Assembly: GCA_965178125.1 (NCBI GenBank)
Contig: OZ237735.1
Location: forward strand, 1,612,001 to 1,676,000
Direction: 5' to 3'
DNA from: Bilabrum cf. latius
Lineage: Eukaryota
DNA length: 64,000 nt
A program made the translations under genes and the position numbers. The notes below the pieces were generated by a model. That model was not told where the DNA came from. It searched no databases and saw only the letters and a list, made by a program, of their open reading frames with translations. Shown here one piece after another: positions 565 through 64,000 of the stretch. Positions within the stretch are counted from its first letter, which is position 1, and each line of letters starts with the position of its first letter.

Positions 565-3500
565 TTAAACCGAGTCGGCCCCTCCCTTGTAGAACAGGAA
601 GATCTCCCAGGTCCCGAAGAAGATCTCAAGGGCGACTTCTGCCACGATGAGCCAAATGACAATCCACTCGAGTCTGCTTGAGTGCTACGCCTCCAGCTGC
701 GTGGACAGCATCTCCAGAAGCTCCCGAATGACATCTAGCCGCTGGTTCAGGAGGTCAACCCGCCGCTCGATGTCCAAATAGGACTGCATCCTCTCGAAGA
801 TTGGCTCGAACTCGTCCGACTCCCAGAGGAATTCCGGGGTATCCAACAAGTCCGACGTGTTGATGGTGTTTCTCTCCACGAAAAGGAGCCCGATCTTCTT
901 GGACACGTCCAGCTCGGACAAGCCGACGCGCCCAGTCCTCGCTAGCTCGATCGGCACGCTCTGGGTCTTGGAGATCGTCCTGTTGACACGAGTCTCTAGC
1001 ACGCTCAGCTTGACGCTCTGTGCAAAGGCATACGAAGCAGCCAGCCTCTCGATGGGGTCGTTCGTCCCCAGCACCACCTCGTCGCTGACCACGCGGCTCT
1101 TGGCGCCGTGGCTGAACTCCATGTCGTCGCATTCGATCTCAGACACGGGACCCAGCACCAGGCCCCCGCCCGTCCCACTCGCCCCGCGGCCGAAGGCAGC
1201 AGACAGGAAAGTACCGGTACCGGTTCTGCCCGTGGCTACTGATGCAGACGAATCCTGCTTCCGGAGCACATGCTCGGGGGCAAGCATGGCGGCACCCATA
1301 GCACGCCTGCGGAGTCCATCGGCTCCCGCAGAGTGGTTGACGCTCACTGCGCTGCCGGTGACTGCTTGCATCCCTCGGTGGCTCCACGACTGCCACCCGT
1401 CGCCTTGCTGATGCTGCTGCTGCTGCTGCTGATGTTGTTGTTGTTGAAATCCGTGACCAGCACTGGTGGCGGACCTGCCCCCGGGTTTGCCCATGGCCAG
1501 CCGGGAGGACCCCAGCTGGGAGCGAGATGCACCACTGCCACCTGCACCTTGCCCAGGGGTCCCTGGCCCGACGCCGGAATCGGCTCCGGATCCCGCCAGG
1601 GAATCGTTCTGAAGCAGGGAGGCCGTCGCGGACGCACCACTGCCTGCTCCTCCGTGCAAGGACCCGATCGATCGGATGGGCGACTCCTAAGTGGCGGTGG
1701 TTGAGCTCGGGCCAAGCTCCAGCCCGATCCCGCTCGAGTCGTGGTGGGCAGCAGCAGCCAAAGAGCCATGCTTTCCCTCATGTGATCGGCCGCCGTCTTG
1801 TTCCTTGGTCTCCTCGGAGACGTTGTTCCCTGAGCCGGAGGAGCGGCTGCCCGCGTTGGCCCGCTCCAGCCGGATAGCGCGAACCTCTGCCTCAGCCTCC
1901 GCCGCGGCCGCTGCGGCCTCCTCTGCGGTCTGCTCCGCAACTGCTTTGTCGTAGAGGAAATCTATCTCTGGGTATATGCTGTCCCGGTCCCCGTCATCGT
2001 CGCTACCCCCGGCCTGGTCCCCTTCGGCATCCCCCCCCAGCGACTCCGAGTCCCCTTCCCCTGCGCCCCCGCCCCCGCCGCCCAGTGCTGCCAGCCGGTC
2101 GATCAGGGCGCGCTCCTCCTCCTCCCCGGGAAAGCCCCAGAGAACAACGGCACCAAACGGGAAGAAGAACACGTCTCGCCGCTCCATCGGGGTACCGACT
2201 GACTGCGACTGTGACTGCGACTGATGCTGTGCTCCAATCCCGGCGAGAGCGGGGGGTGTTCCCGCAGAACCCCCGAGGGAAAGCGGGGGCGGCTGCCCCG
2301 CAGCCCCACCCGTCGCGACCCCCAGCTACTCCTCGTCATCTGTCTTACCACCCCCGGGGTCCATGGCGCTCGCAAAGGGCGAGAGCGGGTGCTCCGGCGG
2401 CAGCGGCATCCGCGGCCTGGGTCTCGACGGCCCTTCCGTGTACGAGTGGACCACCTCTGTGTACATGGTGTGCGTCCACAGCAAGGGCCTGCCGTCCTCC
2501 GTCTCCGCAGGGCACACGGCCAGGTCGCTGGGCCAGCGGGCGGAGAGGACGCCCAGCAGCCTGGCGGTCGGGATCCTGGCGCAGATGCAGTACGCTGCAA
2601 GCCTCCCCTTGTACACCCCTACCCGCGCCGCCCGCGCCCGCCTCGCCCTCCTCGCGAGTCGAGCCGACTCCTTGAGCCGTCTGCTCCTCGCCTCCTCGAA
2701 CACGGCGTCGCCCAGGTGGGCAAAGGAACCGCTGCCGAGGGTCGTCGTCCCAGTCCCGCTCGTCAGCCCCCGCATCATCCCCTGACCACTTGGCACGCTG
2801 CCAGCGTCACCAGTCCGAGAGGCGCGCTGCCGGGAACGGCCGGCGGCCGAGGAGCTCTGGTGCTACTACTACTCATGCTACTTCTCCTGCTACTGCTACT
2901 GCTACTGCTACTGCTACTGCTACTGCTACTGCTGCTGCTGCTGCTGAGTCACTGCAGGAAAATCCCAACCGTCGAGCCCCGATGCCGTTGCGCTTGTTCC
3001 CTGGATGCCACTTTGACCACCTTCTCCTTGCAGCCCCGGCGCCAGTCCCCAGCCGCTGGGCAGACCAGCACCAGTCGCAGTGGAGCCGCTGCCGCCTGCA
3101 ACGCTACCAGCGCCCCCCGTGCTCCCGCCTGCAGCCGACCCAAAGGCGCCGCCGGGTGCCGGAGTCCCCTCCACGTTCAAGATGGTGCCCCCTCGCGCCA
3201 CCAGCGTGCGGTGGTTGTGGGTGTGCCGCGGGGCGTGGTGCACCGGCACTCCCGCGGCCATGGGTGCCGAAGAGCCTGGCGAGCGTTCTTGCGCACGGAC
3301 AGCGGTGGCCTTCAACCCAGGAGCAGCCCCAGTTCCGGCCCCGACCCCGGCCCCGGCCCCGGTTCCAGTCGCCCCCCCCAGCGACCCGCCGCCCTCGCCG
3401 TCGGAGAAGGATCGGATCACGCCCGGCGCGACGGCTGCGTGGCCGCCCAGCTTGTTCCGGTTTCGCCTGGACGACGAAGACATGAGCACGTCTTTCGCGC

Positions 3501-4932
3501 TTAGCCCCAGGACCCTGCCGGAATGCGCGGCGCCGATGTGCTGCGGAACATGCCGCTGCCGCGACCGGCTGGCGACGTCGCCATCCGATGCGCTGTCCAT
3601 GCCAGACGTCTCTCCCTCCGTCGCACTCGTCACACCCCCGAACTCCCCGGCAGAGTCGTAGGTCAGCGGGACCTCCTGCTGCTACAGGTGGGACCGCTGC
3701 GAGCCCGCCGGAGTTCCCGTTCCTGAGGTTGCAACCGGTGCAAAGTGGTGCATGGAGGCCAGTGGCGGCGTGGCCGGGACCATTGCGAGCAGTGGTGGGG
3801 CCCCTGCTGTTCCCTGTGCCACGTATGCGTATCTCCAGCCAGGTGGGGGCACCAGCGGCATCGGCTGCATCTGCATCGGCTGCTGCATGTCGTAGCTCTG
3901 GACCTGGCCGGGGAGAGGCTGCGGAGACTGCCCGGGGCTGTCGTGCGCCACGCTGCTTTGGGTGGTAGCGGTGCCACTGATTGGCGCTCCAGTGCTCGTG
4001 GCGGCACTCGTCACACCTGATTCTGCCAAGGTTGCGGCAGGTGGCGCCGACGTTGGTGTGGGCGCAGATACAACGGGCGTTGCAGGTTGCTGTGATGCGA
4101 CATAGGCAGGGTACTGCTGTTGCTGCTGCTGAAGTAGCTGCTGCTACCAATAGAACTGCTGCTGCTGCTACTGCTATTGCTGCAGGAGCTGAAGCTGCTA
4201 CATGTGTTCTTGCTGCGCGGCTTTCCAGCCAGGTCCTGCCTGGGGACCTTTGCCCACGACGCGCCGCCTGGCTGCCGCTGCTGCAAAGGTAGCTGGATGG
4301 GATCGGCGCTGCTGCTAGTGGTACATGGCGGCAGCGGCATAGGGCGCAAACTGTCCTTGCCACGGGATCGCTGGTCCAAACGGTTGCAGCCCTGCCGGTG
4401 TATCAGCCGCAAAATGCGGGAAAATGGCAGTTGATGTTGCTACACTCGGAAATTGAACCCCATCGTGACCTGCACCGGCCGATTGACCTACACTTGGGAT
4501 ACTTGTTGGGATCCCTTCGGTATCGAGTTTCCCATCGCTGACAGAATTCGCACCGGAGCTGGCATCCCCAGGACTACTTTGAGACTGAGACCCTGGCTGA
4601 GCTGTTGAGTGCATAGCATCCAATGTGTTTCCGTGCTAGTTGGAGCTCAGGTGGTCAGGAGCACCGTCCTCTGTGGACTTCTCGACAGCCACGGAAGCAG
4701 GGGGACTATTTCCAGAATTTAGGTCTCTCGAAGGGAATTCAAGCGATGGCTCGGGAACTAGTGGACTCTCTAATACACCTTCATCATCTACTTCGTAGCC
4801 CGCTTCAGAGGCTTGCTCAGACGCGGAAGTTGAGCCGGTTCGAGACCTGGATCGAGTATGTCCGCGCCCGGTAACTCCAGGCGCGGACCTTGCTATTCTC
4901 TTCGGCCCGTCTCCATCCAATGAGGAACTCAT
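565..4932 (-). CDS. DUF155 (RMD1/RMND1/Sif2 family) protein with long Gln-rich low-complexity N-terminus, ~1455 aa reading TAG as Gln
   Basis: ORF pieces 4636-4932, 4315-4623, 3682-4029, 2926-3633, 2326-2796, 1687-2187 and 685-1659 share one frame and are joined only by TAG (~21). Family motifs: DVFFFPFGAVVLWGF, ERLAASYAFAQSVKLSVLE, LLDTPEFLWE, YLDIERRVDLLNQRL, and past the TAG at 685, *HSSRLEWIVIWLIVAEV. Ends TAA at 565-567. Confidence 0.85.
2863..2946 (-). repeat. Coding poly-Gln microsatellite (CAG)6(TAG CAG)7, followed by further TAG codons
   Basis: Read directly in the DUF155 gene frame: six CAG, seven TAG-CAG pairs, then GAG AAG TAG CAT GAG TAG TAG TAG CAC. Confidence 0.95.
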
Positions 4933-5167: not shown

Positions 5168-7606
5168 ATGGTGGACACAGTAGATGGCCTGCGCAAGCAG
5201 GTTGCCAGGGTCACTGAACAGGGCAAGGCAGCGATCCAGGCAAAGCAATAGCAATTGTTAGAAGCGCAGCAGATCATCCAGACCCTGCAAGCAACCGGTT
5301 CTAAACAGAGTGCTCAGTGGGTGCTGGAAAAGGCGTTTCGCACGATGGTACAGAATAAAGTCGCAACGGCAAGCCTGAAAGTGCTGCTGCAACAGGTAGC
5401 AGATGAGGCCGGCAGAGAGGCGGAGGGTAACATTGCAACTGCAAAGGAAGTAGCGAGATAGCTTGGGGAGGTCTCTCGTGGGTCTGCATCACTTGACGTG
5501 GGAGGTGTTGCAGACTGGGCGATTGGAGGCAGGGTTGCTGCGTGTCCTCGCTGCTCGTTCCGGTCACCGTCACGCTCCAAATTCTGCGGAGGCTGCGGCC
5601 AGCCTATGCCAAGTTAGGGTGGACCGGGGATGTTTGGCAGGCAGTCAGACTCCGGGAGCGCAGCGGGCGGGGCAGCTGCAGCGGGTGCCAAAGGTAGGTA
5701 GGCCGGTGCGAGCAGGGGCGCCACGACCGCCGCCGGCTCAGGCGCAACCGCAACCGGCAAGGGAACGGCCGATGCGGCGACCCAGGCCTCACAGATGTCA
5801 ATCGGTTAGCTTAAGAGGCTTGTGGCTTCATCTAGCCTGCGATCCGAGGGCGAAACCGCGCTGGAGAGGAAGGACCTCGAGAGGCTTGCGACCAGGGTGC
5901 TGAGCGAGCAGCGAGCAAGTGCTCCGGCAGCGAGCAGCGGGGCGTCGAGCAGCAGCACAAAAGCTGCAGAGACTCAATCGGCAGCGAAGGGGAAAGGGAA
6001 AGGGAAGGGCAGAGCCAAGAGCAGAGCAAAAAGCAGAGCAAAGTCAAGAGCAAAAAGCCGTGGCAAGGGCAGGCAATCGGCCGCCGCGGGCACATCCGCC
6101 GCGCCCGCTGCATCCGGCACGATGCCCCCGGCAGTGCCCCCTGTGTCTGCGCCCGCTCCCGCAGCCAAGGCTGTCAAGTCCAGCAGCCAGCGGGCGAGGC
6201 ACGCCAGCTCTGGCTCAGCGTCAGGGTCTGCGTCCGTAGGGAGCGGGGATGGGCCCGGAAACGCATTCGATGCCCTGCGTCGAGGCCTGGAGGAAGAAGA
6301 GGCCAGGCAGCGGAAGAAGGAGGCAGACGCGGCGGCGGCGGCGGCAGCGGCGGCAGCGGCAGAGGAGGACGTACGGAGCCGGCGCGCGACCGGTGCACGC
6401 CGCAGGGGAGGTGCCATTGCCGAGGCTCGCAGGCAGGTGATGGCTCGGTAGGCAGAGGAGTAGGCCAAGGTGAAAGCAGAGCAGCAGGCCAAGGCGAGAG
6501 CAGAGGCGGCCAAGCGGGAAGAGGAGCAGAAGAAGGCGAGGGAGGCTGCGGCAGCGGCGGCTGCGCTGCGGGCCAAAGCGCCTGCGCTCGCGAAGGCGAG
6601 GGCACAGGCGGGGAATCCCTTCGGGTCTGCCGCTCCTGCAGCTGCACCCGCGCCGGGCAACCCATTTGGAGGTGGGAGCAGCGCGCGAGCCACAGCACCG
6701 GCCCCAGCGCCCGCTCCCGCTCCGGCGCCGGGCAACCCCTTCCCTGCTTCCACGGCCAGGGGCACTGCCGGGAGGGCGGGAGCCGCAGCACCGGGCAACC
6801 CCTTCGGCGAGGCTGCTTCCCAGGGAACAAGGCGGGGGCATGCCAAGTCGAAGAGCGCAGGCGCAGCTGCTCCGGCAGCAGCGGAAGCGAGCGGGGGCGC
6901 ATCACCAGCGCCCGGGAATCCGTTCGGAGGATCCACTCATCCGACCTCTGCGGCAGCGAGCGGAACTAGCGGAACAGGAACCGATTCGCCGCGCAGCTCC
7001 GCCACAGCCCCTGCCGGCAAGTAGAGGACGACGACGGCCCAGGAGGACGGCTTGGACGAGCACTGGGTCAAGGCACACACGGGCGAGGGCGTGCCGTACT
7101 ATTACCACAAGGAAACGAGAGAGACTCGATGGGAGAAGCCGGATCCGAAGGTGGGCAAGCAGATGGAGGCCAGGAGGCTGAGGGCAGAGGCAGAGAAGGA
7201 GAGGAGGCGGGCGGCGCGGCTGGCAGAGCTCAAATCCAGAGAGGCCACGCAGGGCAGCATGGCGGCAGAGAAAGAGGCCGTCAGCGCAGGGGTCTCCAAG
7301 GTGATCGACACGTGGGCGGCCAATGCGGGGTGGAGGGCCAGCAAGAAGAAGGCCATCGGGGGGCGCAGGCCCGTCACCATCCTTGCCACCCTGCTCGCGA
7401 CGCTCGACAGGATACCTGGCCTGCCGGCTGACAAGGTGGCGCTGGACCCTAGGTCTGCTGCGGACGGTGCGGTGAAAAAGGGTTACCTCAAGACGGTGCG
7501 GAAGATCCATCCGGACAAGCTGGCGGCTGGTGCGAGTGCCAAAGTCAGGGCGTCGTCCGAGATGGCCTTTGCCGTACTGTCTGCCGTCTACTCCGCCATG
7601 AGTTGA
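5168..7606 (+). CDS. Auxilin-like J-domain co-chaperone with zinc ribbon, NPF repeats and WW domain, ~812 aa (TAG=Gln)
   Basis: One frame from ATG 5168 to TGA 7606, broken only by ~8 TAG. Contains CPRC..FCGGCG, five GNPF motifs, a WW-like segment (HWVKAHTGEGVPYYYHKETRETRWEKP) and a C-terminal auxilin-type J domain (VKKGYLKTVRKIHPDKL..SEMAFAVLSAVY). Confidence 0.8.
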
Positions 7607-7813: not shown

Positions 7814-8539
7814 ATGGCTGCCGTGGATGGATCGCTCGCCAAAGCAGCCTCAGAGAGCAAAGTGGGACCCGAAGGTGCGACTGCAACTGCTGAGCCTTCA
7901 CCGGCACGCGCAGTTTCTGAGGTGTAGAAGCTATTTGAGGAGCACGGGGAGGGTGATTATATCGGAGAGGCTGTTACTCAGTTAGAACACGCCTTGCAAT
8001 GCGCAAAGCTGGCGAAGGATGCGGGCTCCCAGGATGTAGTCGTGATTGGTGCTCTCTTGCACGACGTCGGGCACATGATCGGGCTCCGTGAAGGCGGCGA
8101 AAAGGCCAATCGAATGGGTGGGTGTGGCGTTATGCATCATGAGCGCATTGGCCGAGCTTGGCTCGAAGGCCTTGGATTCCCAATCGCTACGGTCGAGGTA
8201 GTGGAGGGACACGTCCAGGCAAAGCGATACCTGTGCTGGAAGCACCCAGACTACCATTCAAAGCTGTCCGATGCTAGCAAGACCACGCTGACGTACCAAG
8301 GCGGCGTGATGACCGACGCGGAGGCGCATGCCTTCGTGCGAAGCCCGCTCTTCGACACAATCATCAAGATGAGGTCCTGGGACGAGAAGGCCAAAATCAA
8401 AGGGCTTGACGTGCCTGGCCTCGACGAGTACTCTCCGATGATAGAGACTATAGTGGGAACGAACCTGGAGATCAAGAGGGCGACCGCAAGAGCAATCGCG
8501 GCCCAGGGCAAGAAGGACGAAGAATCCAAGGCGGAGTGA
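7814..8539 (+). CDS. PhnZ-like HD-domain diiron oxygenase/phosphohydrolase, ~241 aa
   Basis: ATG 7814, one internal TAG (7925), TGA end. Motifs YIGEAVTQLEHALQCA, ALLHDVGH, HHERIG, HVQAKRYL, LSDASKTTLTYQGG and MRSWDEKAK match the PhnZ/TmpB-type HD family. Confidence 0.85.
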
Positions 8540-8828: not shown

Positions 8829-9249
8829 TCAAGCGCGACCGTCTTGCTACGACTGCCACTCTTCTACCGCCCGTCGCACAACCTTTTCCTCAGTATGCGG
8901 AGCAACTTTAGCTGACTCCTGATTGTGAGCCACGTACGGCTTCAGCTATACTCCGTCCATCGGGGGGGCAACTATCTCGAACTTTCGCTTGTCTAGCGAC
9001 ACAAACTTTGCTTTCGTGGTCATCGTGCCTGGTTTATGGGACCCGAACCCCTTGGTGAATCCTGCGAACAAGAGAAAACACGGGCGCATGCGAAACGTAT
9101 CGCATAGCCCACCCTGTAGCCTGACACAATAGCAGAAGAAGTCAGAAGGGCGTCTTACCTTTCGGAGCATGCTTCGGGCTGAACCTAAATTTTCTACTCT
9201 ATCTGTTCGAGAATTTACCTCTGGATAAACCCCTCGCAACACCGCTCAT
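8829..9249 (-). CDS. MRPL41: Mitochondrial ribosomal protein mL41 (MRPL41/yeast MrpL27 family), ~107 aa; exons 9249-9159 and 9061-8829
   Basis: Phase-1 intron 9062-9158 (GTAAGA...TTCGCAG). Spliced product SPKHAPKGFTKGFGSHKPGTMTTKAKF..EIVAPPMDGV*LKPYVAH fits the mL41 pattern. Three in-frame TAG (9199, 8946, 8847); ends TGA. Confidence 0.75.
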
Positions 9250-9393: not shown

Positions 9394-10209
9394 ATGATCT
9401 CAACAAACTTGTTAGCCAAGACTTCACGCGGTTGCGTGAGAACAGCCAGATTGGGTGCTGCACTTAGGTCGATCCAAAGCTGGTCTGGATGGTCTCCTCC
9501 TCCAAGCGCTGGAATCGGCCACACTGGATACGGCACCGAGCCTCAGGTCTTAAGAGCCACAACCATTCTATCTGTGCGAAAAGATGGCAAAGTTGCCGTT
9601 GTGGGTGACGGCCAGGTCAGCATGGGATCCATGGTCGTGAAGCCGAATGCTAGGAAAGTCCGGAGAATTGGTGACGGGAATGTCATTGTTGGGTTTGCTG
9701 GTGGTACCGCAGATGCTCTCACGCTCATGGAGCGCCTCGAAAGCAAGCTTGAGACGTACAGCAACCAGCTGCTCCGCGCCTGCGTTGAGATGGCGAAGGA
9801 CTGGCGCACTGAAAAATACCTGCGAAAGCTGGAAGCCACCATGATTGTGTGCGACAAGCACGTTTCTTTGGAGGTGACGGGGAATGGCGACGTGCTGTCC
9901 CCTCCAGACGGCGTCATCGCAGTGGGCAGCGGAGGAGCATACGCCCGAGCAGCTGCCGCCGCTCTCATGACGACCGACCTACCCGCCATGGAAATCGCCG
10001 AACGTTCCATGAAGATCGCCGCGGACATGTGCGTGTACACGAACCACAACTTTATCCGCGAGGAGATGGATGCAGAGGAGGCGCCCGAGGGTGCGGATCA
10101 GGGCCAGGAGCAGGACAGCTGGACCTCTGCGAGAGGCGGGGGCGGGGGTGAGAGAGGAAGGGACACAGATGAAAGCGACAGCGATTCGGAGGATGAGGGC
10201 AGGAAGTGA
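9394..10209 (+). CDS. hslV: Organellar HslV (ClpQ) threonine protease with N-terminal presequence, ~271 aa
   Basis: Mature N-terminus [23 protein letters not shown], plus [30 protein letters not shown] and [11 protein letters not shown]. Preceded by an Arg/Ser-rich leader. No TAG; ends TGA. Confidence 0.95.
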
Positions 10210-10536: not shown

Positions 10537-11548
10537 TCAGCCCACGATGATCTTTCCGTCGTCGGTGAACTTGTAAGGGGGGATCTCAAGGTTGAGCGGG
10601 GCGGGGCCCTTCCTGATCCTGCCGCTGCCGTCGTAGTGCGACCCGTGGCAGGGGCAATACCAGCCGTGGTAATCGCCGGCGTTGGCGATGGGCACGCAGC
10701 CAAGGTGTGTGCAGATGCCCATGACCACCAGCCACTTGGAGTCCTGCACACGGGCCGCGTCAGCCTGGGGGTCCTTCATGTCCGACATGGGCACTCCCTC
10801 CGCCTCTGAGATCTGAGCCGCGGTCCTGTGCTTGATGAACACGGGCTTTCCGCGCCACTTGACGGTCACCACCTGGCCCTCCTCGATGCCGTTGAGGTCC
10901 ACCTCGAGACTGGCCATGGCCAGCACGTCGGCCGATGCGCTCATCGTCGCGACGGCGTTGATGATCGCTAGCCTGACGGCAGACGCGTAGATGAACTTGC
11001 TAGCTCCCAGCACAAAATAAGTGAACGCTTTCTTGGAACCCTGGTTACCAGGCTCCAGGCGGGTCTTCTCGAAGTAGTGGTCGGCACTGCCGTAGTCCAT
11101 GCCAACCTTCGCAAGAGCGTCATCGGACTTTGCCCCGTGCATGCTCTCGTAGCACACCGCTGCGCAATCATAATTGAGAACTAATGTAGATCAACAAAGT
11201 AGAATGCGATACAGTTCAATTGCGGGCAGCCGAGACCGCGTTTCGTGCGCACATGCCGAGACATGAGCAGGGTACCGTTGCAAATCACAAGCAGAAGGGC
11301 TATTGCTTCCAATGCATGGCATGACAGCTCAATTTTGTGACAGTCGCTCATTTTGTGCTGAGAGTGCTGCAACACACCTCCAGCCTAGGCCCTTTTCAAC
11401 GATGAAGAAGTCCTGACGATTCAATCACCCTTTCGAAGTGCGACATTCACTTACCTGGTGTGGAAGCAACGGACCTAGCTCCAGTACGGAACATAGACGA
11501 TCCCATAGGGGCCACCCGGCGCGCTGCAGAGAGAGCTCGTCTCATCAT
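10537..11548 (-). CDS. UQCRFS1: Cytochrome bc1 Rieske iron-sulfur subunit, ~238 aa; exons 11548-11455 and 11159-10537
   Basis: CTHLGCVP and CPCHGSHYD Rieske boxes, KWRGKPVF, GPAPLNLEIP. Exon 1 encodes a mitochondrial-type presequence (MMRRALSAARRVAP). Phase-1 intron 11160-11454 (GTAAGT...GCGCAG). Ends TGA. Confidence 0.95.
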
Positions 11549-16099: not shown

Positions 16100-16170
16100 G
16101 ACTTGTGCTGCACCGTTCAATACAATGTTTGTGTCTTATACGCGCGTCTCGTACTCCATTTCGGTTCAAT

Positions 16171-49530: not shown

Positions 49531-51528
49531 ATGTCAAATAAATCATCTGGCGCTGCTGGATCTAAGCTGACTCCCCCAAAACTGAAGCGATCCGAGAGTG
49601 TTTTGGCATTCTCCGAATGGCTCGCGTCGCCTTTGTGCGACCGTGACCTCTACTTCAGGTCGGTTGCAGATGGGATCGTGTATAGCCGAGAAATCATGGC
49701 AGATTCCGTCACCCAGCAGTTGATGGCAAAGTGGGAGGGAATGATCAGCGAGTCGCCTATCACGGCGACCTTCGACGAGATCTGCATCAAGCTATGCAAA
49801 GTAGCGGCAGGAGATGAGCTGAAGGATGTGAGCATTGATAAGGTCAAATCGTGGCGCATTGAGCTGCCGCCCCTGGGGTCTGGATGTGCGTTCTCCGCGA
49901 TGGCTAGAACGAGAGCAGCCCTTCGCGAGTGGCAGCACCCGTTGCTGGCTGCTGCACTGCAGCAGTGCGCAGAAACGGACATTTCAAACTGTCAGGTAAC
50001 CTGCGCGATGATCTGCAAGACCGCATCGAACTGCGATGCCGCAAAGCGCTTCATGTTCACGCTCCTCGTGAAGCGAGCAGTCTCCAGCCTGCCGGAAGGC
50101 GGGCGTCTCAAGCCCCAGGTAACAGCAGCTCCAGCTGCGGCAGCGGCTGCAATGGCCGATCCTAGTAGCGCGGCCCCGGCAGTATCGGATGGCGACAAGG
50201 GCGATTCGGCGGCGTCGGGCGCCGGCGCAGGCGACGCGGCGACAGCATCTGCCAGCGATGCGAGCAGCACCGGCATGGACCCCGCCGTGGCCAGAGAAAT
50301 CCTGCGGAACTTTTGCATGGAGCGGATCGACGAGCTGAAGGAGAAAGCTCTTGCCTCCACGTTCTACGAACCGGCCCTTTGGTACCTGGAGACGACGGGC
50401 AGCAGCACCTGCAACTTCGAGGTGCACGCGGCGAACGTTTACCTGAGCTTTCTGGCGGTGGTGCTGGGCGTGAGAACTTCGCGGCAGCCCTACATCGATG
50501 ACCCCAACTGCACCCTAGGGCTGGTGCACTGGAGGCACAGCGTGCCCGTCACTGCCATCGAGGCGTTCCAGCGGCCAGAGTACCTGGGCAAGGGCTGGAT
50601 GGCTATCGCTAAGCTCAAGGGGCTGGGCGTGGACCGGACGGGGGACCCCCGCAGAGCAAAGCTCGTGGCGGAGATCGAAGAAGCGACCGCCAAGAAGGTG
50701 ACGGACGTGGAGGGCGCGGGCGCGATGGTCCAGCAGGCGGAAGACAAGCTCAAGGCATACGAGAGGAAGGCCGCCTGCACTCGATGGGCCCTCTAGGACG
50801 GAGAGGTGGAGGCCTGGCTCGCAGGCAAGGAGCCATACGAGGTGGTGCATGCAGCGGCGAGGGCGGCTGCATCTGGTGGGAGCGACGTGGCCGGTGCTGG
50901 TGCTGCCACTACCGGTGCAGCCAGTGGTGGCGCGGCCGCCGCCAAGGAAGCAAAGAAGCCGGCGAGCGGTGAGGGAGACAAGCCTGCGCCCGATGCGACC
51001 GAAGAGCCAGGCCCGGTATCAAAGCCCCCGAGCAGCCGCTTCCTGCAGAAAGGAAGCACCCCTCGCGAAGCGGTCCGGCTGCTTGCCGACGGCACCGCTC
51101 CCGCGTGGCAGATGAGAGCTGCCCGGGGATACGCCGCCCATTTCGCGTCCTACTTTGCACCGCATGCCGCGCTGCAGAGGCTCGTCGTCGCTTGCAACCA
51201 GGACGGGGGTCCCAAGAGCGCGCTGATCCGGGTGTTTGAGGCGATGCGGGAAGAGCAGAATGCGCTGCACAAGGAGGCGAGCACTGGCGGCGGAGCAAGT
51301 GCTTCGGCCAACGCGCCAGAGGGCCGGCCGTGCCTGTGGCCGCCGCTGGAGGAGTCACTGTCCGTGGACTTCTTTTTCTTCGATGACGAGGACTACGAGT
51401 TCCTGACGCACAATGCGGTGCGCTTCTTCTACTACCTTGGGATGGTCCGCGAGTCGCACGTTGCCAAGGCGGCCCGTGATGCTTGGGCGGCCTTCGATGC
51501 TGCAGAAGCCGGGTCGCCGATCGATTGA
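49531..51528 (+). CDS. Hypothetical protein, ~665 aa
   Basis: ORFs 49531-50796 and 50806-51528 share a frame and are joined by one TAG. Coding-like codon usage; ends TGA; no family recognised. Confidence 0.75.
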
Positions 51529-51760: not shown

Positions 51761-53839
51761 ATGGCAGCAAGCGGAGCAGGCGAGTCGGAGTCAAAGGTCG
51801 AGCAGAGGGACGGATTCCACGTGCAACAAGGAGCGCAGCCTGAAGCTTCGTACGCTGCCGACAAGAAAACGCTGGAGCAGATCCTGGAGGCATCTCGAGG
51901 TAAGCCACGCCGTTTCCATCAGCAATCCAGTGCACGAGAGGCATGCGTCATGTACCTGTGCGCACATTTCCCCAAGTATCCCAAGCACAGATGGCGAGCT
52001 CGCAATGCTGCGGGTGTTACTGGACGGGCAGAGCGACAAGTCCAAGACTTCCCTGAAAGAGCTGTGTCCCCGGCTACGGGACGGCAACAAGCGCACGGTG
52101 CTGCATTTTGCAGCAGCAACAGATCGTTCTGATACCGTACAGTACCTAGTGGTAGAGTGTTGCAGCGATTTGATCGACATGAAGGACTCGAGCGGAAGCA
52201 CCGCGCTCCTGCTGGCAGCAGCAGCAGGCTCGGCTCTAGCCTCAAAGTAAGCGGGTTTTACGTCCTTAGCATTCACAACCTTTACATCTATTTCAATGCT
52301 TGTTTTCATGTTCCGTACCCGGCGCTGCTGGCTCGCAGGAAGCTGCTGGAGCTTGGTGCTGACGTGCATGCAGCGCGGCCTAGCGGTGAGCAAGCAATTC
52401 ACCTGGCAGCCCGAAACGGGCGCACTGACGTGCTGGCAATCCTCTTGGAGCATGGTGCGGATGGATCGTCCATGGGCGACCACGGCACTGCCATCCACGA
52501 GGCCGCTGCCGACAACGAGTTGGAAGCCCTGCAGATGCTCCTGCGAGCGGTCGACAAGAAGGCCGGCCAGGCCAGCGGTAGCTCCTCGCAAGCGGAACAC
52601 GAGGCCGCCGCAGTCTCATTTCCGCCCTCTACTGCTCTTGCAGCGGAGCTAAACAGGCCCAGCCTGAAGGGTCCGACGCCGCTGGTGATGGCAGCAGCCA
52701 TGGGAGCGGAGAAGACCGCCGAGCTGCTGGTGCGGGCGGGCGCCAGGCTCGACACCGGAGCCGCCCTGGGAGGCCTCTCTGCATTGCACCTCTTCGCGGA
52801 CAAGGGCAACGCAAAGGGAGTGAAGGCCGTTCTAGAGTGTCCCGGGGGAGACGCAATGCCACCGCTCCCGTCTGAGAGACCGGCAGCCCCCGCCGCTGCA
52901 GAGCCGGTGCCGTCATCGCCAGCGGGTGCGAGCGGCGGGGCGGGCCAAGCCGACTCGAGCTCTCCTCAAGAGGATTCTATCGAGTGGAAGTCGGAGGAGC
53001 GGGCCCGGCTGGCCTGCTGCAGGCGCAACGCGGACGGCCTTATCCCACTGCAGCTCGCGCTTGCGAGTGGGCACACAGACGCAGCCGGGCTGTTGCTGGA
53101 GGCGAGCCGGAGGGCGCTGCCCGAGGAGCAGAGGGGCATGGATCTCGATGAGCTGATCAAGGTGTACGCCGAGCAGGGCGAGAAGGACAAGGAGGCGAGG
53201 CAGCTGGCGCGGGCGCAGAAGCGCGCAGAGAAGAAGAGGAAGGACGCGTCCTCCTGGAACCCCCGTGACCCCCCCAAGCACCCGGTCCCTGGGTCCCCCG
53301 ACGGTGACGACTACGCTGACCTCGGTCCGCTGCCAGACGCTAGCAGCATCAGCGAGTCCAGCAAGAGGGAGGCAGCGGAGTGGAAGTACAGGGGGGACGG
53401 CGCGATGAAGGCGAAGCGCTTCATGGAGGCGGTGGGCTTCTACAAGCAGGCGCTGCAGAGGGACCCGCTCAACCACGCCATCTACTCGAACCGAAGCATG
53501 GCGCTGCTCAGGCTCAACCAGGCCGCCATGGCGCTGGAGGATGCCCGCTGGTGCAGGCGGCTGGCCCCGTGGTTCGTGAAGGGGTGCTACAGGGAGGGCA
53601 TGGCTCGCATGGCCATGGTGGACTTCGACCGCGCCTCGCAGGTCTTCTGGACGGCCTACTGCATGGACAACGAGAACTACGAGATGGCAGAACTGTTCAA
53701 GGAGGCCGTGGCCAAGGGCAAGGCCGTGGCTGCGAGGGAGCGTGGGGAGTCGGTTAGTGACAGTGAGGACGAGGACGAGGCCGCGGGCGGTGGTGCAGGC
53801 GGGGACAGGGAGCTCGAGACGGCCAAGATCGACGAGTGA
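51761..53839 (+). CDS. Ankyrin-repeat plus TPR protein, ~631 aa; exons 51761-51899, 51991-52246, 52339-53839
   Basis: Ankyrin motifs RTVLHFAA, GSTALLLAA, GEQAIHLAARNG, TAIHEAA, TPLVMAA, SALHLFA. TPRs KYRGDGAMKAKRF..YSNRSMALLRL..KGCYREG. Introns 51900-51990 and 52247-52338 (GTAAGC..CAG) reconcile three ORF frames. Confidence 0.85.
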
Positions 53840-54138: not shown

Positions 54139-57100
54139 TCACACGAACGTCGCAACCGTGCTCTGTCCACCGGGAGCTGCCTTGGCGGGCCCGGCAGCCG
54201 AAGCTCCGGCGGCCACGTTGGTGCTTCCTCGGCTTGCCGGAGGAAGCTGGGCGCTGCTGCCTGTCGCGGCAGCGCTGTTGGAGGCTTCGTTTGCAGGCGC
54301 TGAAGCCGGCTGCTTCGTCCCGCCACCGGGACACATGCCGTTCATGTACAGCGCTACGCCTGCGCCGATGCCGACCACGAGCAGCACTGCGATCACCACG
54401 CCGGCAATTGCACCGCCGCCCATGCCGTCGCCGTCGTCGGGGTCGACATCGTCGGATCCAGGGTTGCCGGAGGCACCGACGACGTCGGCCGCGACGCCGA
54501 CTCCAGAGTTGCTGCTGTCCAGTGTGACCACGGCAGTCTAGTCCACCTGGGCCGCGAGCACGGTGTCGGCTGCCATTGCAGTGGCCACCTGCCCGTTCTG
54601 CACCGCAGTCGCGGTGCGCTAATACGCTTCGGTGGCGTCTGCCTCGTCGTCCACTGCGAGCACGGTGGTCACGTACGCCTGCTGCTGCTGCCCCTGCAGC
54701 GTGCGCGCCTCGCTGCCCGATCCAGCAGAGGCCCGCCTCGCTACCGCGCCCACACGGAAGAAAACCTTGGCATCCGGCGCGGCGCTTCCGAACGCGGCGT
54801 CGAGCAGGATGTCGGCGAAACGGACGGAGGACGAGCAGTCGAACCCAGCGGCGGCGCTCGCGGTCAGGCGCAGGTTGAAGGTGAGGCTCACCACCATCTG
54901 CGTGGGCGTGAACTGCACTGCTGCCCGCCCGCCGACGCTGTCCGTGCACTCCTCGGCACCGTCGTCGATCGGGCTGCGCACCGCGGTGCTTGGAAGTGGC
55001 GTGGGTGCCGGCGTGGGAGTCGGAGACGGGGACGGCGCGACGGGGTCGTTGAAGGGCGAGGCCAGGGACAGGAGGTGCACACGGCCCATGTCTGGCTCGC
55101 CCACGGCAAGCACAGAGTCGATGGAATTTGCCCCCAGGAAGTTGCCAAGCCCTGCCAGCCCGGATGCAAAGTCTGGACGGTCGTCCTGGATGGGGTGCGT
55201 CAGCCAGCTCGTGGCCACGCTCGAGATGTCCCTAGTGGACCGCAGGGAGGCGTTGGCACTATTGGAGTCAAAGTCGAGGAACATGATCACTGCAGCAGAC
55301 TAGGAGCGCGGCTGCGGCGGCGGTGAAGGCGATGGCGACGGCAGCATGGGCGGGTTGAAGAAAAAGTCGTCGAATTGCGGCGGCGGGTTGTCGTCCGATC
55401 CCTTGTCAAGCTGCGCTCGCCTCTTCAGTGCCTTGTTCGGGCCCCTGCCTTCGGATCGACCGACAGCGATCTCAGGGAATCCATCGCCGTCGAGATCACC
55501 CAGGTTGGCGAGGGACAGTCCCATATACCCGCCTGACACCAGTGGCAGGCCGGCCGCGCCTGCCACTGCCTGCCCCGTGCGAGTTAGCATGGTGACTTCG
55601 TCCACGGTCCAGGCAGGAACGTCCATTGCGAGCAGGAATACAGCTCCATCAGAGTTGGAATGGCCCGGGGCACCGACTGCGAGCAGCGCTGGCACCGTAG
55701 GCGTGGTGCTGTCGCGCACGAGGACAGCACTCTGCCCGAATCGAGCGTTCCGTCCGAGAATACCGGTAGGAAAGCCGCCCTGGCCATCCGTGATCTCTCT
55801 CTTCCACTCCACAGTGCCGTCAACTCCGAGCCCCAGTAGCATCAGCACGCCACTGGCCACCACGGTGCGTCCGTTCTGGTTCGGGGCCCCGATAGCCACC
55901 GTCGCGTAGCGTGCGGCCGGTCCCGCCTGCAAATCATCGTCCGTAGTGTCGTCGTCCGTGGTGTCGTCGTCCGTAGTGTCGTCGTCCGTGGTATCGTCGT
56001 CCGTAGTGTCGTCGTCCGTGGTATCGTCGTCAGTGGTGTCGTCTCCGATTGCGACCAGCAGGTTTCGGTGCTGCAGCTCCCGCGCCTTGATTGGATCTAG
56101 CGGCGGCTCGGCCAGCGTGTCTGCCTTCCGGATGAGCGTAACCGACGCGCCGAACGCAGCCCTATGTGAGAGACCCATGGCTAGCCCGCCGTGCACCCGG
56201 GAGATCTGCTGCACTCCCTTGGCCGTGCCGTTGCGGTGCATGAAGATCACGGCGGCTGAACCTTCGCCAGTGCAGGCCATGAACGTGGTGCAAGAGCCGT
56301 GGGCATCATCATCGTCCGTGGTGGTGTCGTCCGTGGTGTCATCGTCGTTCGTGGTGTCATCGTCGTCCGTGGTGTCGTCATCATCGACAATGGCGACTCT
56401 GAGAGATCGGGCAAGGGACTAAACCCTGCGATCCAGCGGAGCCCCCACGAGCACGTCTGGCACCCCATCCCCGTCCAGGTCCCCGATGCTGGTGATCTGC
56501 TCAAAGGCCCGGCTGCCCTGATCGAACAATTCGGACGGGATGCCGTTCATACCGTTCATGAGCTCGACCGATGAGATGGCTCTGGTACCACTGCGTGGCA
56601 TCAGCAGCACGTGCATGCTGCCCTCCTGCGCCCCAGGAGCGGAGACCAGCAGGTCCTCGTGCCCGTTACCGTCGATGTCGCCCGCCGGCGCCACATTGAA
56701 GCCGAACTTGCGAGCCACGAGCTGCTGCTGCGTTCGGCCTCCAAACGTTTCTTCGTCGCCGGGAATCAGCACCTGAGAGAGTACCACCCCCGGCCCGCGG
56801 GTGGGCGCGGCGGTCGGAGTGGGCGAGGTCGAGGCGGATGGCGACGGGGATGGGCTCGCGGATGGCGACGGGCTCCCGGAGGCCTGCACCGCCTGTTTAC
56901 GCCCTGTAGTGGATTCACCTGCGAGATCAGTTGATGCAACCAGCATGGATATTCGTGTGGGGCCGGTTCGGAGCAAGCAGAGATCTGGCAGGGTAGCCGC
57001 ACGGTGCGAGGCTATGCTGCAGCCTACAAGGTGATTTTGCACTGCATTTATCCACCATAGACTAAATATGTACTAAATTTTCAAAATCGGTTGTTTGAAA

Positions 57101-57963: not shown

Positions 57964-59782
57964 TCACTTTCCAAGCTTCCCATTTGCTCCAGACCTGCTC
58001 ACCAACGCGCGAGCTGCCACGACCCGCTGCGAATAGCTCATGTGGCCCTCCTCCATCTCGCTCCTCCGCAGCTCAGAGACCTTGGCTCCGTCCCCAGTCG
58101 TAAACACCACCTTCTTCACGAACGAGCACCGCCGAATCACAGCCAGACAGAGAGCGCACGGTCGGGAAAAACCCAGGGTATCAGGTGCCGCCGGCAGGTC
58201 AGCCACCCTGACTCCCCTCCGGCCGGCCTCCTCGCGGCGGGCCATCTCGTCCCTCGGCGCGCCCCCGTCCACCCCCCCCTCACCCTTGAGCGTCCTCACC
58301 ACCGTCAGAGTCATGTCGGGAACAGACGACAGGAACTTGCGCACCGAGGCCGGCTACCGGGACTCCCACTCGTCACACGGTCGCAGAGCCGCCACGAGGT
58401 GCCTTGACCTCGACTTGATCCCCGTACCGGACACCAGCGCCCGCCTGGCCGCCGAAGAGATCCCCCTGGGGTCGCTGCCCCCCGCTACGGGGTCCTCCAG
58501 GTGCAGCCCCCCGACGGGGTCCACCATCACCTGGTGCACCGCAGAGCTGGCCATCCCATCCTACTCGCCGCGGCTCCTGGCCGCGCTCTTCTTGCTCGCG
58601 GACCTTGTCTTCTTCTTCGATCGCAGCATCGCGCGAACGTCCATGGCCGGCTGCTGCTTCTTGCGGCGATGGCGGCGGTTGTTATTGGTGTCGCAAGCAG
58701 TGGCGGTGGCGGCGGGCAGCGGTGCGCGGAGCTCGGCGTGCTCGGGCTGTGCCCTCTGCTGGCGGGCACCCTTGCTGCTCTTCATGCACCCGGCATCATC
58801 GGCATCATCGGCGTGCTGCTTGCCACCGCGGGCCCGTGCCTTCTTCGTTGGCCACCCTGTCTCGAGGGAACACGAGGCGGAAGAGCCCTCTACCCTACGC
58901 CACGGTGCCCCCCCAATGCTAGACGCGTCCTCCGAGCTGCTCGGTGGTGCGCCAGACGCCACGGAAAGCGCGTTCTCGTGCGCAACTGAGGATCGACGCA
59001 CAGCCTCGAACACGCCCGGCTCGGAAGGCCCGGTCAACGATGACCGCACGGACTCTGCGCCCACGGAGCACGTGTCGCTACTGCTGCTGCTGGCGGCGGG
59101 CGCAGCGGGCGCGCTGCTGCAGGGCAAGGCGAGCGCATACTCGAACGGGGCTGAGCACAGCAAGGCTCGCGTGGCGGGGTCCGCGAGGCGGTGGGCGGCG
59201 GCTACATGCTTCGATGCAGGATTTGAAGCTGACTGATTGCATGCCACGCTCAATCCTGCAGCAGAGTCGTGGCTAGCCCGCCGCTTGGCTCGCCGGTATC
59301 GCCTCGCCTTCTTGCGCGGTCGCTGCTGCTTCTCATCCGTCAGGTTCTACAGCTTCAAAACATTTAATACACGGCCTACTCAGCAAAGACCGCGTCGAGA
59401 ATAGCTCAAGCTCGGCGTCCTAAAACACGGAGCTTGGCAAGGGCTTGCCTGTGACGGTGGACAATCAGCGCGAAAAGATGCATCAATGACGTTGGAAATG
59501 CAGTGGAGCTGTCATACGCTTTGGCTCGAACGATAGACTACTAGCCGTCTCACCATTGACACGGAGGCGCATCAAGGCATCGATCTCAGCGTGCAGCGAG
59601 CACTCAAGGTGGCCGGCGGGGGCAAACGGAGAGTTTGTCCCAACCGCTGCTACCTTGCCACCGCGGGTGAGCACGGCCCCGTGAGCTGAAGGCAGTCCGT
59701 TCTCGACGGCTGCGCTGGATGCAATTGCAATAGAGCGCTGCTGCGAAGCAGTTGGCTTGTTCTCGATGGAAACTGTCGGCAT
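57964..59782 (-). CDS. Zinc-dependent cytidine/dCMP deaminase-like protein with ~400-aa insertion, ~546 aa; proposed intron 59376-59553
   Basis: N-half HGAVLTRGGKVAAVGTN..CSLHAEIDAL and C-half LTVVRT..SRPCALCLAVI..VKKVVFTT. Joined by a phase-1 GTGAGA..TAG intron (acceptor tentative) and in-frame TAGs at 59347, 58561 and 58354; ends TGA. Confidence 0.72.
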
Positions 59783-59909: not shown

Positions 59910-61895
59910 ATGGAAGGCCCAAAATGGGATACTTTTTGCTAGTTTGGGGTGGATCGATGGAAAACTAGTGCAGGCTTTCAGCAATGCGGAATTAGGCAGG
60001 AAACGGTCGCCCTGTCCGCCAGGGCCTCGGCATGGCTTCGCAGCAGCGGTTCTGTCGTGCTTCCGGAGCTTCCCAACAAGGACAAGGCGGCCCTCACCGA
60101 TCCCAGGTTCGAAGAAACGGAGGAAACAAGCAGCGACGAGAGCGAGACAGGTGAAACGATCCAAGAGAGCCGTGTCATATCGCTGGCGGAGGACGAGGCA
60201 AGGATTGAGGCAGCCATGAAGCGCCTAGGCTGCGACGCAGGCAGCGACCCCGGAGTGGTCCCTCGGTTGCCATGGACAGCACCAACCGACGCCATTTGGG
60301 CGACTCGGCACGAACTTCAATGCAGGAGCGTAGGAGAGGTATGGAACTTGCTTGCATGCAGCGAGGTCCTTAGCTTTGACCTGGGCAAAGCAAGAGAACT
60401 CATTCGCTAGAATCAACCAAAAGAGGATACAAAGGACGTAAGATGTGGATCTGAGGCTGCTGGGAGCGCCACTAAGGCAGCTGCAGAGGGGAGTACAGCG
60501 GAGGGGGCAGTGACGGAGCTGAGCACCGTAACGCTCGCTCTCCGACCGTACGTGCCGCAGCTGCGCGACAGTCCGCACATGGTCTTCAGGATATTTGCTT
60601 CCACAAAGTGCGGGTCATGTGCTGATCTCAGCCCGCACATCCTTGCGATCGTCAGACGTCACCCGGCCCAGTTTGGCGCCACCTTTGACCGACCGCATGG
60701 TTCACCGATGCCCCCTCCAAAGCACATCGCCGCCAGGGCGATGCAAATCGAGGAAGCGCTCGGCATTGATGCAACGAATAGCAGCGTCGAAGCTACAGCT
60801 GCTGTGCCGAGAGTCGACGGCGCCGGCGCGCCTCCAACCAGCCAAGCGACTACAGCTGGCAGTGGCGGTGAAGCAGACTAGGAGCCCGATGGCATCACGC
60901 TCGCCGAGTGCCTGCGCGCCGAGGCAGAGTTGCTGATGAGGGCCGTATTTGCCGATGCAAGTGCTAAACAAGATCCATCGCCCGTTGGTTCGTCACATGC
61001 AGCAGCACCAGCAGAAGCACCGGCAGCTGGAGCAGCAGGGGCGGGGGAAGGAGCGGGGGCAGGGGCTGGCATGACCACGCCAATGCCATCTTCAAAGGTG
61101 CAGCAATCGGCAGCCAGATCCATCCTGAGGCATGGGCGGTTCGCCCTCGACGTGTTCTGGGACTGGGACGGCGTCGTGCCTACCGAGGCAACAGAATTTG
61201 ATTCCGAGTTGGAACACGGCGCCTAGACATCTGTCTCCTCCCCGTCGCGCGGCGGGAAGCGAAGAGAGCAGGCGATGGCCCTGGAGGAGGTGCTCGCCCG
61301 TCCCCAGGCGGAGTACGGCCGCAGCCGCGGCGCGGCCCGCGGCAGGCTCGTGCTGCTGGACGTGTCTCCCTGGTGGGAAGGCGTGACGGAGACGCCGTGC
61401 ACGACCTATCGCGAGCTCATGGACCTCGAGCAAGTGGCTGCTGGTGGTGGCACCACCGCCGACTATCACACGGCCCCAGGCATCCCTGTGGTGAGGCTGA
61501 CCCTCCCCACCCCCTCACCACCTGCCTACCCCCCCGCTGGATCCCAGGCGGGCCCTCGCTAGGCAGGAGCAGGAGAAGTAGAGGGCAAGCAGGTGTCGGA
61601 GGGGGGCCAAGGAAAGGTGTCTGCCGATGGCTCGACCTTCGTGCCGGCGGTGAGAGCTCGACCCGCGGCGAGCCACGCCGTGCCTCTAGAGGTAGCCACT
61701 CTGCTTGAGGGCGGGCGAGTGGACGGCATGCTTGCGACAGTTGGGGGGGCGTTGGATGGAGAGAGGGGTGACAAGAGCTTCGGTAGCGACCCAAGGGAGA
61801 GGCTCGCGCAAGGAGGCATGCCTGACTTAGTGTCTTTGCTGGAAGGAGCCTTGGCACGACAGCGACTGGAAGACAGCGAAGATGCTTGTGGTTGA
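59910..61895 (+). CDS. Divergent CDC123/D123-like ATP-grasp protein, ~661 aa (TAG=Gln)
   Basis: FC*FGVDRW, VVPRLPWTAPTDAIW..LQC..VWNLLACSEVLSFDL, LALRPY..PHMVFRIF, FALDVF and LVLLDVSPW..YREL follow the order of D123 motifs. Five in-frame TAG; ends TGA. Confidence 0.7.
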
Positions 61896-62218: not shown

Positions 62219-64000
62219 ATGATTATCCTTCTACTGGCTGGATTTCTGCCTGCAGCTGTCGCTGGCCCGGTGACTGTGACCGAGGTCTCTCCGCGCTACG
62301 GCAGTCTTGCTGGCGGACAGTTTGTACAGCTGAATGGCGACAACTTCCCGATCAACTCGTTTGAGGGTCAGACTCTGGTCTTTCTTGGCGAAGAATAGGC
62401 TTGCGAAATCGACTGGTACCACACGACAGCAGACAGAATCGTCTGCCAGACTCATGCTGCAGCGCGCTCGGGCATGGCGGAATTCCCGCTGTCAGCGGCG
62501 GTGTTCACGGACAACGCGTTCTTTTCCCGGTGCATTAATGATCGATGGCCAGAAAGATGCGAGTACCGCTACACGACGGACGAAACGACTCGAATGCTTC
62601 GCAGCTTCGGTACAGGCAGCACAGAAGTGTGGATGGAGACGTCCGATCGCTATGCGAACCAATCAAGGGTACAGGTCACTAGCTCGGCTCATTGGGACAC
62701 AGACGATATTGGTTCTGAAGTGTTTGGTAAGACGGCCGTGTCAGTAAGGATGAGCTCAGAGTCTCGCAGCTTCGGGTGCTCAATCGTGGACTCTGCCGGC
62801 AACGACATCACCCGAGTTGATTCGAGACTCGGCAGGACGCGATTTATTTGCCAACACCGTATCGAGGATGCTGGAATGTACAACATAACCCTAAAACTGC
62901 CGCGGTACGGAGACGCGATCTAGGACCCCGATGCTTTGCGAGTGTCTGCGGCTTCGCCAGTTTCGGAGGGCGCAGATACGACTCCGGTCAAGCTTTACAG
63001 TGTTGCAGCGCATCCTGTTATACATCGAATCAGTGCAAGGGCTAGCTCCCTGGCTGGGGGAGCTGAAATCTCGATCGATGGCGGTGGCTGGTCAGCAGAA
63101 GAGCAGGCAGCGGAAGTACTCGCTGCCGGGCTGCCGTGCACGATTGTTCGCCAGGCAGGCTCTCGAATCACCTGCAGAACCGCTTCATTTCCCGATCTCG
63201 ACTCGAGTTCCAACGGTGCTGCTGGTGGGGCTCCAAGTGAGGCATTCCCGACTCTAGGCGTGTGGTCGCAGGGTCAGGTCGCCGGCGTTGCGCTGGGCGG
63301 CACCTCGGCCGGTGATAATCTTGCAGGAGTGCTGCCAGGGGACGTCCGGCTGTTTGCAGGTGGCCAGGGCGTACTGCAAGAAGTATGGTGGGGCGTTTCC
63401 GGTCCTCCGGGCGGCGACGCCTTCGCTGCCGACAGTGCGTTCGATAGCATGGAAGCAGCGGGTGCACGCCGCAATGCCTCGCTGGAGCCCGTGTTCCCGC
63501 AGGAATGGACCGATGCAGTGGAGTCGGCGCGGCAATCATCGCACGGCTACCAGCTGGCAGTACAGAGGGGCCAGCTGCCTCCAGTTGGACCGCACCCGAA
63601 CGGCTCCGCACAGCTCCCGCCCCGCGAGCCCGATCACGTGGACACGCTGAGATCATTCGAGGCAACGACGAGAGCCCTGTGGGATGAGCATTTCCCTGGA
63701 GTCAGCGATGTGGAGGAAGAATAGTACGGCCTTGGGGACAGCTACTACCAGCGTCTCACCTCGCTGTTCACCCCACCCGTGACGGGCAACTATTCCTTCG
63801 TGCTTGTCTCCGACGATTGGAGCGAGCTGTACATTGCGGGGTGCGCCCAGCCGGGGGTGCTAGGCAGCGATAGGATGGATACATTCAACCTTTCAGCGCC
63901 GGGGCGCCGTGTCGCATGGCTCAGGGGCCGCCTCTCAGACCACATCAACTCCTTCCACCGTGACGGCTCCTTCGAGTCTGCCCCCATCGAGCTGAGTAGA
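62219..64000 (+). CDS. Secreted/surface IPT-TIG plus PA14 domain protein (fibrocystin-like), 3' end outside window
   Basis: Signal peptide MIILLLAGFLPAAVA; IPT repeats VTEVSPRYGSLAGGQFVQLNGDNF..ACEI..IVCQT and VIHRISARASSLAGGAEISIDGGG..PCTI..ITCRT; PA14 motif LFTPPVTGNYSFVLVSDDWSELYI. TAG at 62396, 62921 and 63722. Confidence 0.82.

Follow-up and report, generated by a model that had tools for sequence, protein, structure and literature searches.

What does the codon UAG mean in the nuclear genome of Bilabrum cf. latius? The question is raised by a 64-kb stretch of contig OZ237735.1 (positions 1,612,001 to 1,676,000; hereafter the window, whose first letter is position 1), in which TAG triplets recur inside protein-coding genes. 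The window has a GC content of 62% and carries 21 protein-coding genes on both strands; judging by the Pfam matches of the window proteins, the gene families are clearly eukaryotic and chiefly housekeeping or mitochondrial. Very probably, the DNA comes from the nucleus of a mitochondrion-bearing eukaryote, GC-rich and poor in introns, whose UAG has passed from stop to glutamine, with UGA as the main stop and UAA as an infrequent one, a scheme that matches NCBI table 15. From its behaviour in the sequences, UAG is almost certainly decoded as glutamine, as the original prediction had proposed along with the table 15 assignment: UAG exchanges with CAG and CAA in relatives as a synonymous codon would, TAA is absent in frame and TGA is the main stop.

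The reading frames themselves set TAG apart from the other two stops. The longest stop-to-stop frames, of 1750, 1110 and 872 codons under the standard code, give way to frames of 3593, 1981, 1843 and 1470 codons when TAG is taken as sense. The three longest frames do not grow at all when TAA is taken as sense, and with TGA as sense the outcome is just a large number of middling frames, as GC-rich DNA would lead one to expect. Counted from the first ATG, the 21 frames comprise 17,895 codons, among them 87 TAG, 587 CAG and 119 CAA; the counts of TAA and TGA are zero by construction, as these two codons delimited the frames. Read in its two off frames, this DNA contains 286 and 302 TGA, 31 and 40 TAA, and 105 and 96 TAG. 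TAG is about as frequent in frame as out of frame, while TAA and TGA are fully excluded in frame. At the off-frame density of TGA plus TAA (0.018 per codon), the chance of an open frame of 3593 codons is P ~2e-29. Inclusion of the last exon of the mL41 gene raises the count to 89 TAG in 17 of the 21 genes, and whole stop-to-stop frames contain 95, in agreement with the roughly 95 TAG in 17 genes counted originally. Conserved domains run in frame across these codons, as had been claimed: seven of the 19 Pfam matches checked include TAG (PH, with two; EF-hand, twice; Nrap domain 1; D123; TIG; PA14), and with the PP2C and mL41 matches nine Pfam domain matches span a TAG. UAG is found in frame inside conserved, expressed protein-coding genes.

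Might these codons not be translated as such, the genes being pseudogenes or the TAG triplets assembly errors or sites of RNA editing to CAG? Contigs of four sequencing runs from three studies were aligned over 565-20564 (runs X8-X15, which contribute small shares, were left out), and no letter differs in any of the four. The contigs of X5, X6 and X7 show four joints that remove GT..AG introns: 9061-9157 in the mL41 gene, present in all three runs, 11160-11454 in the Rieske gene, and 11772-11888 and 12026-12154 in a transporter gene. The genomic run X1 is continuous across all four. The joints indicate that the X5-X7 contigs derive from spliced mRNA; these runs are not recorded as RNA, and their RNA nature follows from the spliced joints alone. 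Identical X5-X7 pieces cover at least 30 of the 47 in-frame TAG within 565-20564, and one spliced X5 contig, from which 11772-11888 and 12026-12154 are removed, covers 12155-13627 without differences, the TAG at 13596 included. Exact contigs from three studies, some of them spliced, in which TAG is kept exclude assembly error and RNA editing, and they answer the call made at the outset for mRNA to be inspected for CAG in place of TAG. Just one of the three stops ever occurs in frame, the housekeeping genes NOL6, mL41 and CDC123 are among the carriers, and a metagenome relative with 63% identity (described below) shows the same pattern. Nothing was found in favour of an artefact, pseudogenes or editing, the probability of which is practically negligible, and the initial view that the genes are not pseudogenes holds. 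They had also been described as uninterrupted and free of TGA and TAA. Neither stop occurs in frame, but the mL41, Rieske, transporter and, by prediction, PP2C genes have introns. There are five short GT..AG introns in all (97-295 nucleotides), of which four are confirmed by the spliced contigs and one (35561-35694) is predicted from its GTAAGT...CAG ends; the remaining window genes look intron-free. The genome is intron-poor, not intron-less.

The residue inserted at UAG can be read from close relatives, namely orthologue fragments in public protein collections that are 83-97% identical to window proteins. Having been predicted under the standard code, the fragments break off wherever a stop occurs in frame. 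The majority come from a single contig of 49 kb with the NOL6, B''-gamma (a PP2A-type EF-hand protein), giant EF-hand and 1940-codon genes, which makes it syntenic with the window, and a contig of 5.4 kb supplies others. The 49-kb contig may belong to another strain or species, or be a diverged second copy within the window organism. Fragments span five window TAG, with Q at that position in four (B''-gamma codon 633, giant EF-hand codons 1866 and 3289, codon 1313 of the 1940-codon gene) and E in one. Nine interpretable fragment ends fall inside window frames, at positions where the window has CAG in four cases, TAG in three, and TCG and AAG in one case each; the end of fragment P0166 was omitted from the tally, as the alignment runs out a residue before it. 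Among the 11 sites that changed, the partner is Q eight times and E, S and K once each; in a BLOSUM90-based likelihood the lead of Q is 12.3 natural-log units over E and 15-16 over K, R and H. The second codon reached from TAG by a transition, TGG, is never the partner. The relatives' proteins (P0001, P0005, P0007, P0162-P0171) are stored cut at TAG, and several non-ATG starts are called as M; standard-code annotation has mis-predicted the genes that yielded the cut fragments.

A more distant comparison is provided by a 3-kb metagenome contig (L001, 1-3021; 58.5% GC) that encodes a B''-gamma orthologue of 63% identity and is saturated at four-fold sites relative to the window. Its coding part contains five in-frame TAG and neither TAA nor TGA, while its upstream non-coding part holds all three stops. 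Seven TAG columns are well aligned (two in poorly aligned stretches were dropped) and pair, in the order window/L001, as TAG/CAG, CAA/TAG, CAG/TAG, TAG/TAG, TAG/GAG, GAG/TAG and TAG/GGG. The TAG/TAG column is B''-gamma codon 278, the same codon on both sides; the other four TAG of L001 stand opposite CAA, GAG, CAG or unalignable sequence in the window. The changed sites give Q at three of six and E at two of six, and by likelihood the columns favour Q over E about 5:1. A 59%-identical fragment has H at one TAG site. The in-frame TAG pattern of L001 points to a trait common to lineages far apart; a metagenome scan with a NOL6 segment found no relative.

Distant homologues are no guide to the residue. 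Among 150 B''-gamma homologues, Q is joint first at column 278 (10/42) and present in 6/81 at column 633. In PDB alignments, the residues opposite TAG are R and R (NOL6), K (mL41), T/A and H/Y (FKBP4/5), and K and S (PH domain); the CDC123 alignment ended short of the N-terminal TAG. These comparisons are uninformative on the residue, and TAG occupies variable positions. Certain motifs had been offered initially as places where glutamine fits, a claim that fails here, since the distant-homologue columns hold R, K, T/A, H/Y and S. The proposed tally of residues aligned to TAG gives glutamine at 8 of the 11 close-relative sites, whereas the distant homologues do not single out glutamine. The tracts in which TAG had been seen among CAG codons (2890-2928, 4144-4200, 15248-15265, 23376 and 26556) are all five present as described. 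The first of them is a perfect hexanucleotide repeat, (CAG TAG)7, at 2890-2928 (-), within a longer tract at 2863..2928 (-) that, in a codon print-out, has further TAG codons. The repeat suggests that slippage spread TAG-containing units once TAG was harmless; as an argument for glutamine it falls short, as taken alone it could equally be a Q-E repeat.

Codon usage agrees with the status of a minor glutamine codon. TAG makes up 11% of glutamine-type codons, and its share is 15.7% (57/364) in genes with a third-position GC content (GC3) below 0.72 against 7.0% (30/429) in the rest, paralleling CAA. The rate at which glutamine codons neighbour TAG (0.218) is close to that for CAG (0.194), the median being 0.07. 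By gene, the TAG share ranges from 0 (Rieske, GH35, ankyrin and HslV) to 0.17-0.24 (RMND1, WW, PH, TPR and D123).

Several observations pull in the other direction. The single E among the spanned sites stands opposite the penultimate codon of the 1940-codon gene, and Glu is the counterpart of TAG in two L001 columns. At fragment ends the relatives' TAG is deduced rather than read directly, and the tally of TAG sites that are conserved is too low, since a fragment end is the one sign by which they show. Mutation favours the change from TAG to CAG, a transition, irrespective of the meaning of TAG. When six deep columns are summed, R, K, H and N come above Q, which ranks fifth, all within 1.4 natural-log units, and on removal of the RMND1 gene TAG falls outside the top ten codons by glutamine neighbours. 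No tRNA gene was found in the window or in contig L001. Finally, both genes that end in TAA soon reach an in-frame TGA, 27 codons on in RMND1 and 6 codons on in the TPR gene.

Some of these points would suit a code in which UAG specifies another residue, most plausibly glutamate, with lysine, serine, leucine, tyrosine and pyrrolysine as further options. Glutamate is the meaning adopted for stop codons in peritrich ciliates and Blastocrithidia. The one TAG-E pair in a close relative and the two in L001 could be explained in this way, the (CAG TAG)n repeat would also make sense as Q-E, and the deep columns lean slightly to R, K, H and N. Yet Q is the partner at eight of the 11 changed close-relative sites, with E and the basic residues far behind in likelihood; if UAG meant glutamate, TAG/GAG exchanges should dominate at 83-97% identity, and one was seen. 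L, Y and W are never partners. A residue other than glutamine is accordingly very improbable.

If UAG is glutamine, has UAA changed with it? UGA is a stop: 18 of the 20 complete genes end in TGA, which occurs 0 times in frame against ~294 times per off frame. The other two, RMND1 and the TPR gene, end in TAA. No internal TAA occurs in the 17,895 codons, against ~18 expected from the CAA:CAG proportion (P ~1.5e-8), which argues for a change restricted to UAG. Termination at UAA is likely from these ends, yet not demonstrated by the window alone because of the closely trailing TGA. Those TGA leave room for a code of the table 6 type, in which both UAG and UAA are glutamine and UAA is very rare as the genome is GC-rich: both TAA could be read through without visible harm, and UAA and UAG mostly change meaning jointly (PMC11687900, PMC5304391). 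Such a joint change is improbable given the missing ~18 internal TAA, the 31 and 40 TAA in the off frames of the same genes, and the lack of TAA in the coding part of L001.

A further possibility is that UAG has a dual meaning set by context, glutamine within genes and stop at some gene ends. Context-dependent codes of this sort are used by Condylostoma and by karyorelict ciliates. Frames delimited by TAA and TGA are blind to genes that truly end at TAG, and the 1940-codon gene has a TAG two codons ahead of its TGA. At this near-terminal TAG, however, the relative has E and extends to the same terminus. Each of the 20 complete genes reaches TGA or TAA and none needs TAG as a stop; the tails past the last TAG look coding, with a GC pattern (0.66/0.53/0.75) still like that of the genes overall (0.67/0.53/0.74); and the base following TAG is distributed much like that following CAG. 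A dual meaning therefore appears hardly likely.

Reading of UAG as glutamine would call for two changes, both expected by analogy with other reassigned lineages, where they are established. UAG would be read by a tRNA-Gln whose anticodon, CUA, lies a single mutation from the CUG of the tRNA-Gln that gave rise to it, and a release factor eRF1 would have lost recognition of UAG while keeping that of UAA and UGA. The eRF1 gene is not among the window genes, and no Rfam family matched in the window.

Codes in which both UAR codons (UAA and UAG) are glutamine (table 6) are used by many ciliates, dasyclad and other ulvophyte algae, hexamitid diplomonads, oxymonads and the aphelid Amoeboaphelidium protococcarum. 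They share with the window a stop codon reassigned to glutamine, and the likely route through a mutated tRNA-Gln and an altered eRF1, but not the sense meaning of UAA, which is absent inside the genes here where ~18 were expected. Amoeboaphelidium, an algal parasite with a duplicated genome, was considered as the source and rejected, as it differs in the same respect and in having genomes of about 40% GC (40.5%; Table 1 of PMC10608142) against 62%. About eight cases are described in which UAG and UAA differ in nuclear meaning (PMC11687900), among them the rhizarian exLh (Leu), Scotinosphaera (Ser), uncultured phyllopharyngean ciliates (Leu) and an uncultured ciliate with UAA as Lys and UAG as Glu. 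The window resembles exLh, Scotinosphaera and the uncultured phyllopharyngeans in that UAG is uncoupled from UAA, and departs from them in the residue: L is never a partner, and S at one of 11 sites. Glutamine at UAG with UAA as stop is described for Iotanema spirale, Hartmannula sinica, Trochilia petrani and Protocruzia tuzeti (PMC11687900). Code 15, with TAG as glutamine, also occurs in phages of gut bacteria, in which the code is switched late in infection (PMC9523058); in the window, by contrast, it serves permanently, in a eukaryotic nucleus whose genes are spliced.

Iotanema spirale, a fornicate with a nuclear code of the table 15 type (Panek et al., 2017; PMC5304391), is matched in codon, residue, probable retention of UAA as stop and in being a non-ciliate eukaryote. 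Iotanema belongs to the anaerobic Metamonada (PMC9161772), unlike the window, which encodes the complex III Rieske protein, mL41, RMND1 and HslV at 62% GC; these genes imply a respiring mitochondrion and fit an anaerobic fornicate poorly. Protocruzia tuzeti, Hartmannula sinica and Trochilia petrani likewise share the codon and residue, the presence of UAG in most genes and, probably, UAA as stop (PMC11687900). The window differs from these ciliates in being multi-gene chromosomal DNA (21 genes in 64 kb on both strands) of 62% GC. The UAG=Gln ciliates have low GC contents and gene-sized chromosomes. Nor do the window proteins look ciliate-like by their matches. The named best matches of one of them are spread over Obazoa (Thecamonas, Corallochytrium, a chytrid, animals), in addition to two transcripts from MMETSP, and for the Rieske protein four chains score 246-248 bits, above yeast and bovine-type chains at 217-224. 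The worst among the mitochondrial chains is the presumed Tetrahymena one. Neighbours in the atlas were resolved to the level of protein families only. The original prediction was right that the organism is not ciliate-like; its guess of a stramenopile-type flagellate finds no support in anything analysed here.

The type of code is already known, and the organism probably adds another lineage to those that use it. To speak of an undescribed reassignment, as was first suggested, is an overstatement, as there are published examples of UAG=Gln beside an unchanged UAA stop in Iotanema, Protocruzia and two phyllopharyngean ciliates (PMC11687900). No nuclear code with UAG=Gln in a GC-rich aerobe outside the ciliates is reported in the literature searched, beyond which lie subscription papers and supplements that could contain one. 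To our knowledge, stop reassignments are usually found in AT-rich genomes, nuclear ones outside ciliates are few, and those that change UAG without UAA are fewer still. It is a nearly balanced proposition, held tentatively and with the scales tipped slightly against it, that an independent and so far unreported reassignment of UAG to glutamine, with UAA kept, arose under GC pressure in a GC-rich aerobic non-ciliate clade comprising the window organism, the 83-97% identical relative and the 63% identical metagenome relative with TAG at the same codon. The organism looks culturable and has genome and RNA data from several studies, which makes it tractable for work on how eRF1 discriminates UAG from UAA and on GC-driven codon capture. 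Standard-code gene callers truncate its proteins at every TAG, and without table 15 the annotation and phylogenomics of the lineage will go wrong. The interest is for specialists; this is not a new kind of code.

The genes that carry this evidence are described here along the window. The RMND1/DUF155 gene (565..4932, -) is the richest in the codon, with 21 in-frame TAG in 1455 codons and a TAA end (Pfam DUF155, E=8e-40). A WW-domain protein with eight TAG follows (5168..7606, +; Pfam), then an HD-domain protein (7814..8539, +; Pfam) with a single TAG at 7925 and exact matches in X6 and X7 contigs. The last exon of the gene for the mitochondrial ribosomal protein mL41 (8829..9060, -), preceded by an intron, has TAG at 8946 and 8847 and ends in TGA; the Pfam MRP-L27 match extends over the first of these TAG, and the exon also matches mL41 in the PDB. 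Neither the HslV-type proteasome subunit gene (9394..10209, +; Pfam) nor the last exon of the Rieske iron-sulfur protein gene (10537..11159, -; intron at 11160-11454) contains TAG. These two genes are convergent and ~330 nucleotides apart, and one RNA-derived X5 contig (9356-11159) spans both, which indicates that their 3' ends overlap or abut. The last exon of an MFS transporter gene (12155..13760, +), identified by Pfam and delimited with the spliced X5 contig, has its TAG at 13596. A PH and WW protein (13871..16099, +) has nine TAG, two within the PH match, and the PP2A B''-gamma-like EF-hand protein (16171..18819, -) five, at which relatives show Q at codons 121 and 633 and one TAG at 278.

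The gene for a GH35 beta-galactosidase with ricin lectin domains (19133..21703, -) has no TAG in its 856 codons, where ~4 would be expected at the mean rate, and, at 0.85, a GC3 above that of every other gene. The nearest atlas cluster of its protein is bacterial (Actinomycetota). The gene may be either highly expressed, shunning a rare codon, or a recent horizontal acquisition. Next comes the 1940-codon protein without recognised family (22620..28442, +; six TAG); its assignment as a TFIIIC TPR subunit was considered and rejected, there being no PDB match and only sub-threshold TPR matches. The nucleolar protein NOL6/Nrap (28554..33971, -; five TAG) shows its five Nrap domains in order in a single frame, and the PP2C phosphatase gene (35134..36344, +) has two exons in two frames, separated by the predicted intron 35561-35694, with one TAG inside the PP2C match. 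The giant EF-hand protein of 3542 codons (36466..47094, -) has ten TAG and about ten internal repeats, each of which closes with a conserved module, W-[YF]-N..GG....W.ELL..[RK]KWP. EF-hands are found in one repeat, and apart from EF-hand-type matches no Pfam family corresponds to the repeat.

The remaining part of the window begins with the TPR protein gene that ends in TAA (47599..49332, +; five TAG), followed by a 665-codon protein without family match (49531..51528, +; one TAG) and an ankyrin and TPR protein without TAG (52472..53839, +). A probable cytidine/dCMP deaminase-like gene is represented by its C-terminal part (57964..58785, -; two TAG), in an uncertain gene model. The CDC123/D123 protein (59910..61895, +) has five TAG, one within the D123 match, and a TIG and PA14 protein (62219..64000, +; three TAG) continues past the window end. 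Between the ankyrin and deaminase-like genes lies that of an FG-GAP membrane protein (54139..56946, -; four TAG), in which long D/T runs made of DDDTT units separate the FG-GAP repeats and a membrane span is found at the C-terminus; from this sequence organisation it would resemble an integrin alpha chain with acidic inserts.

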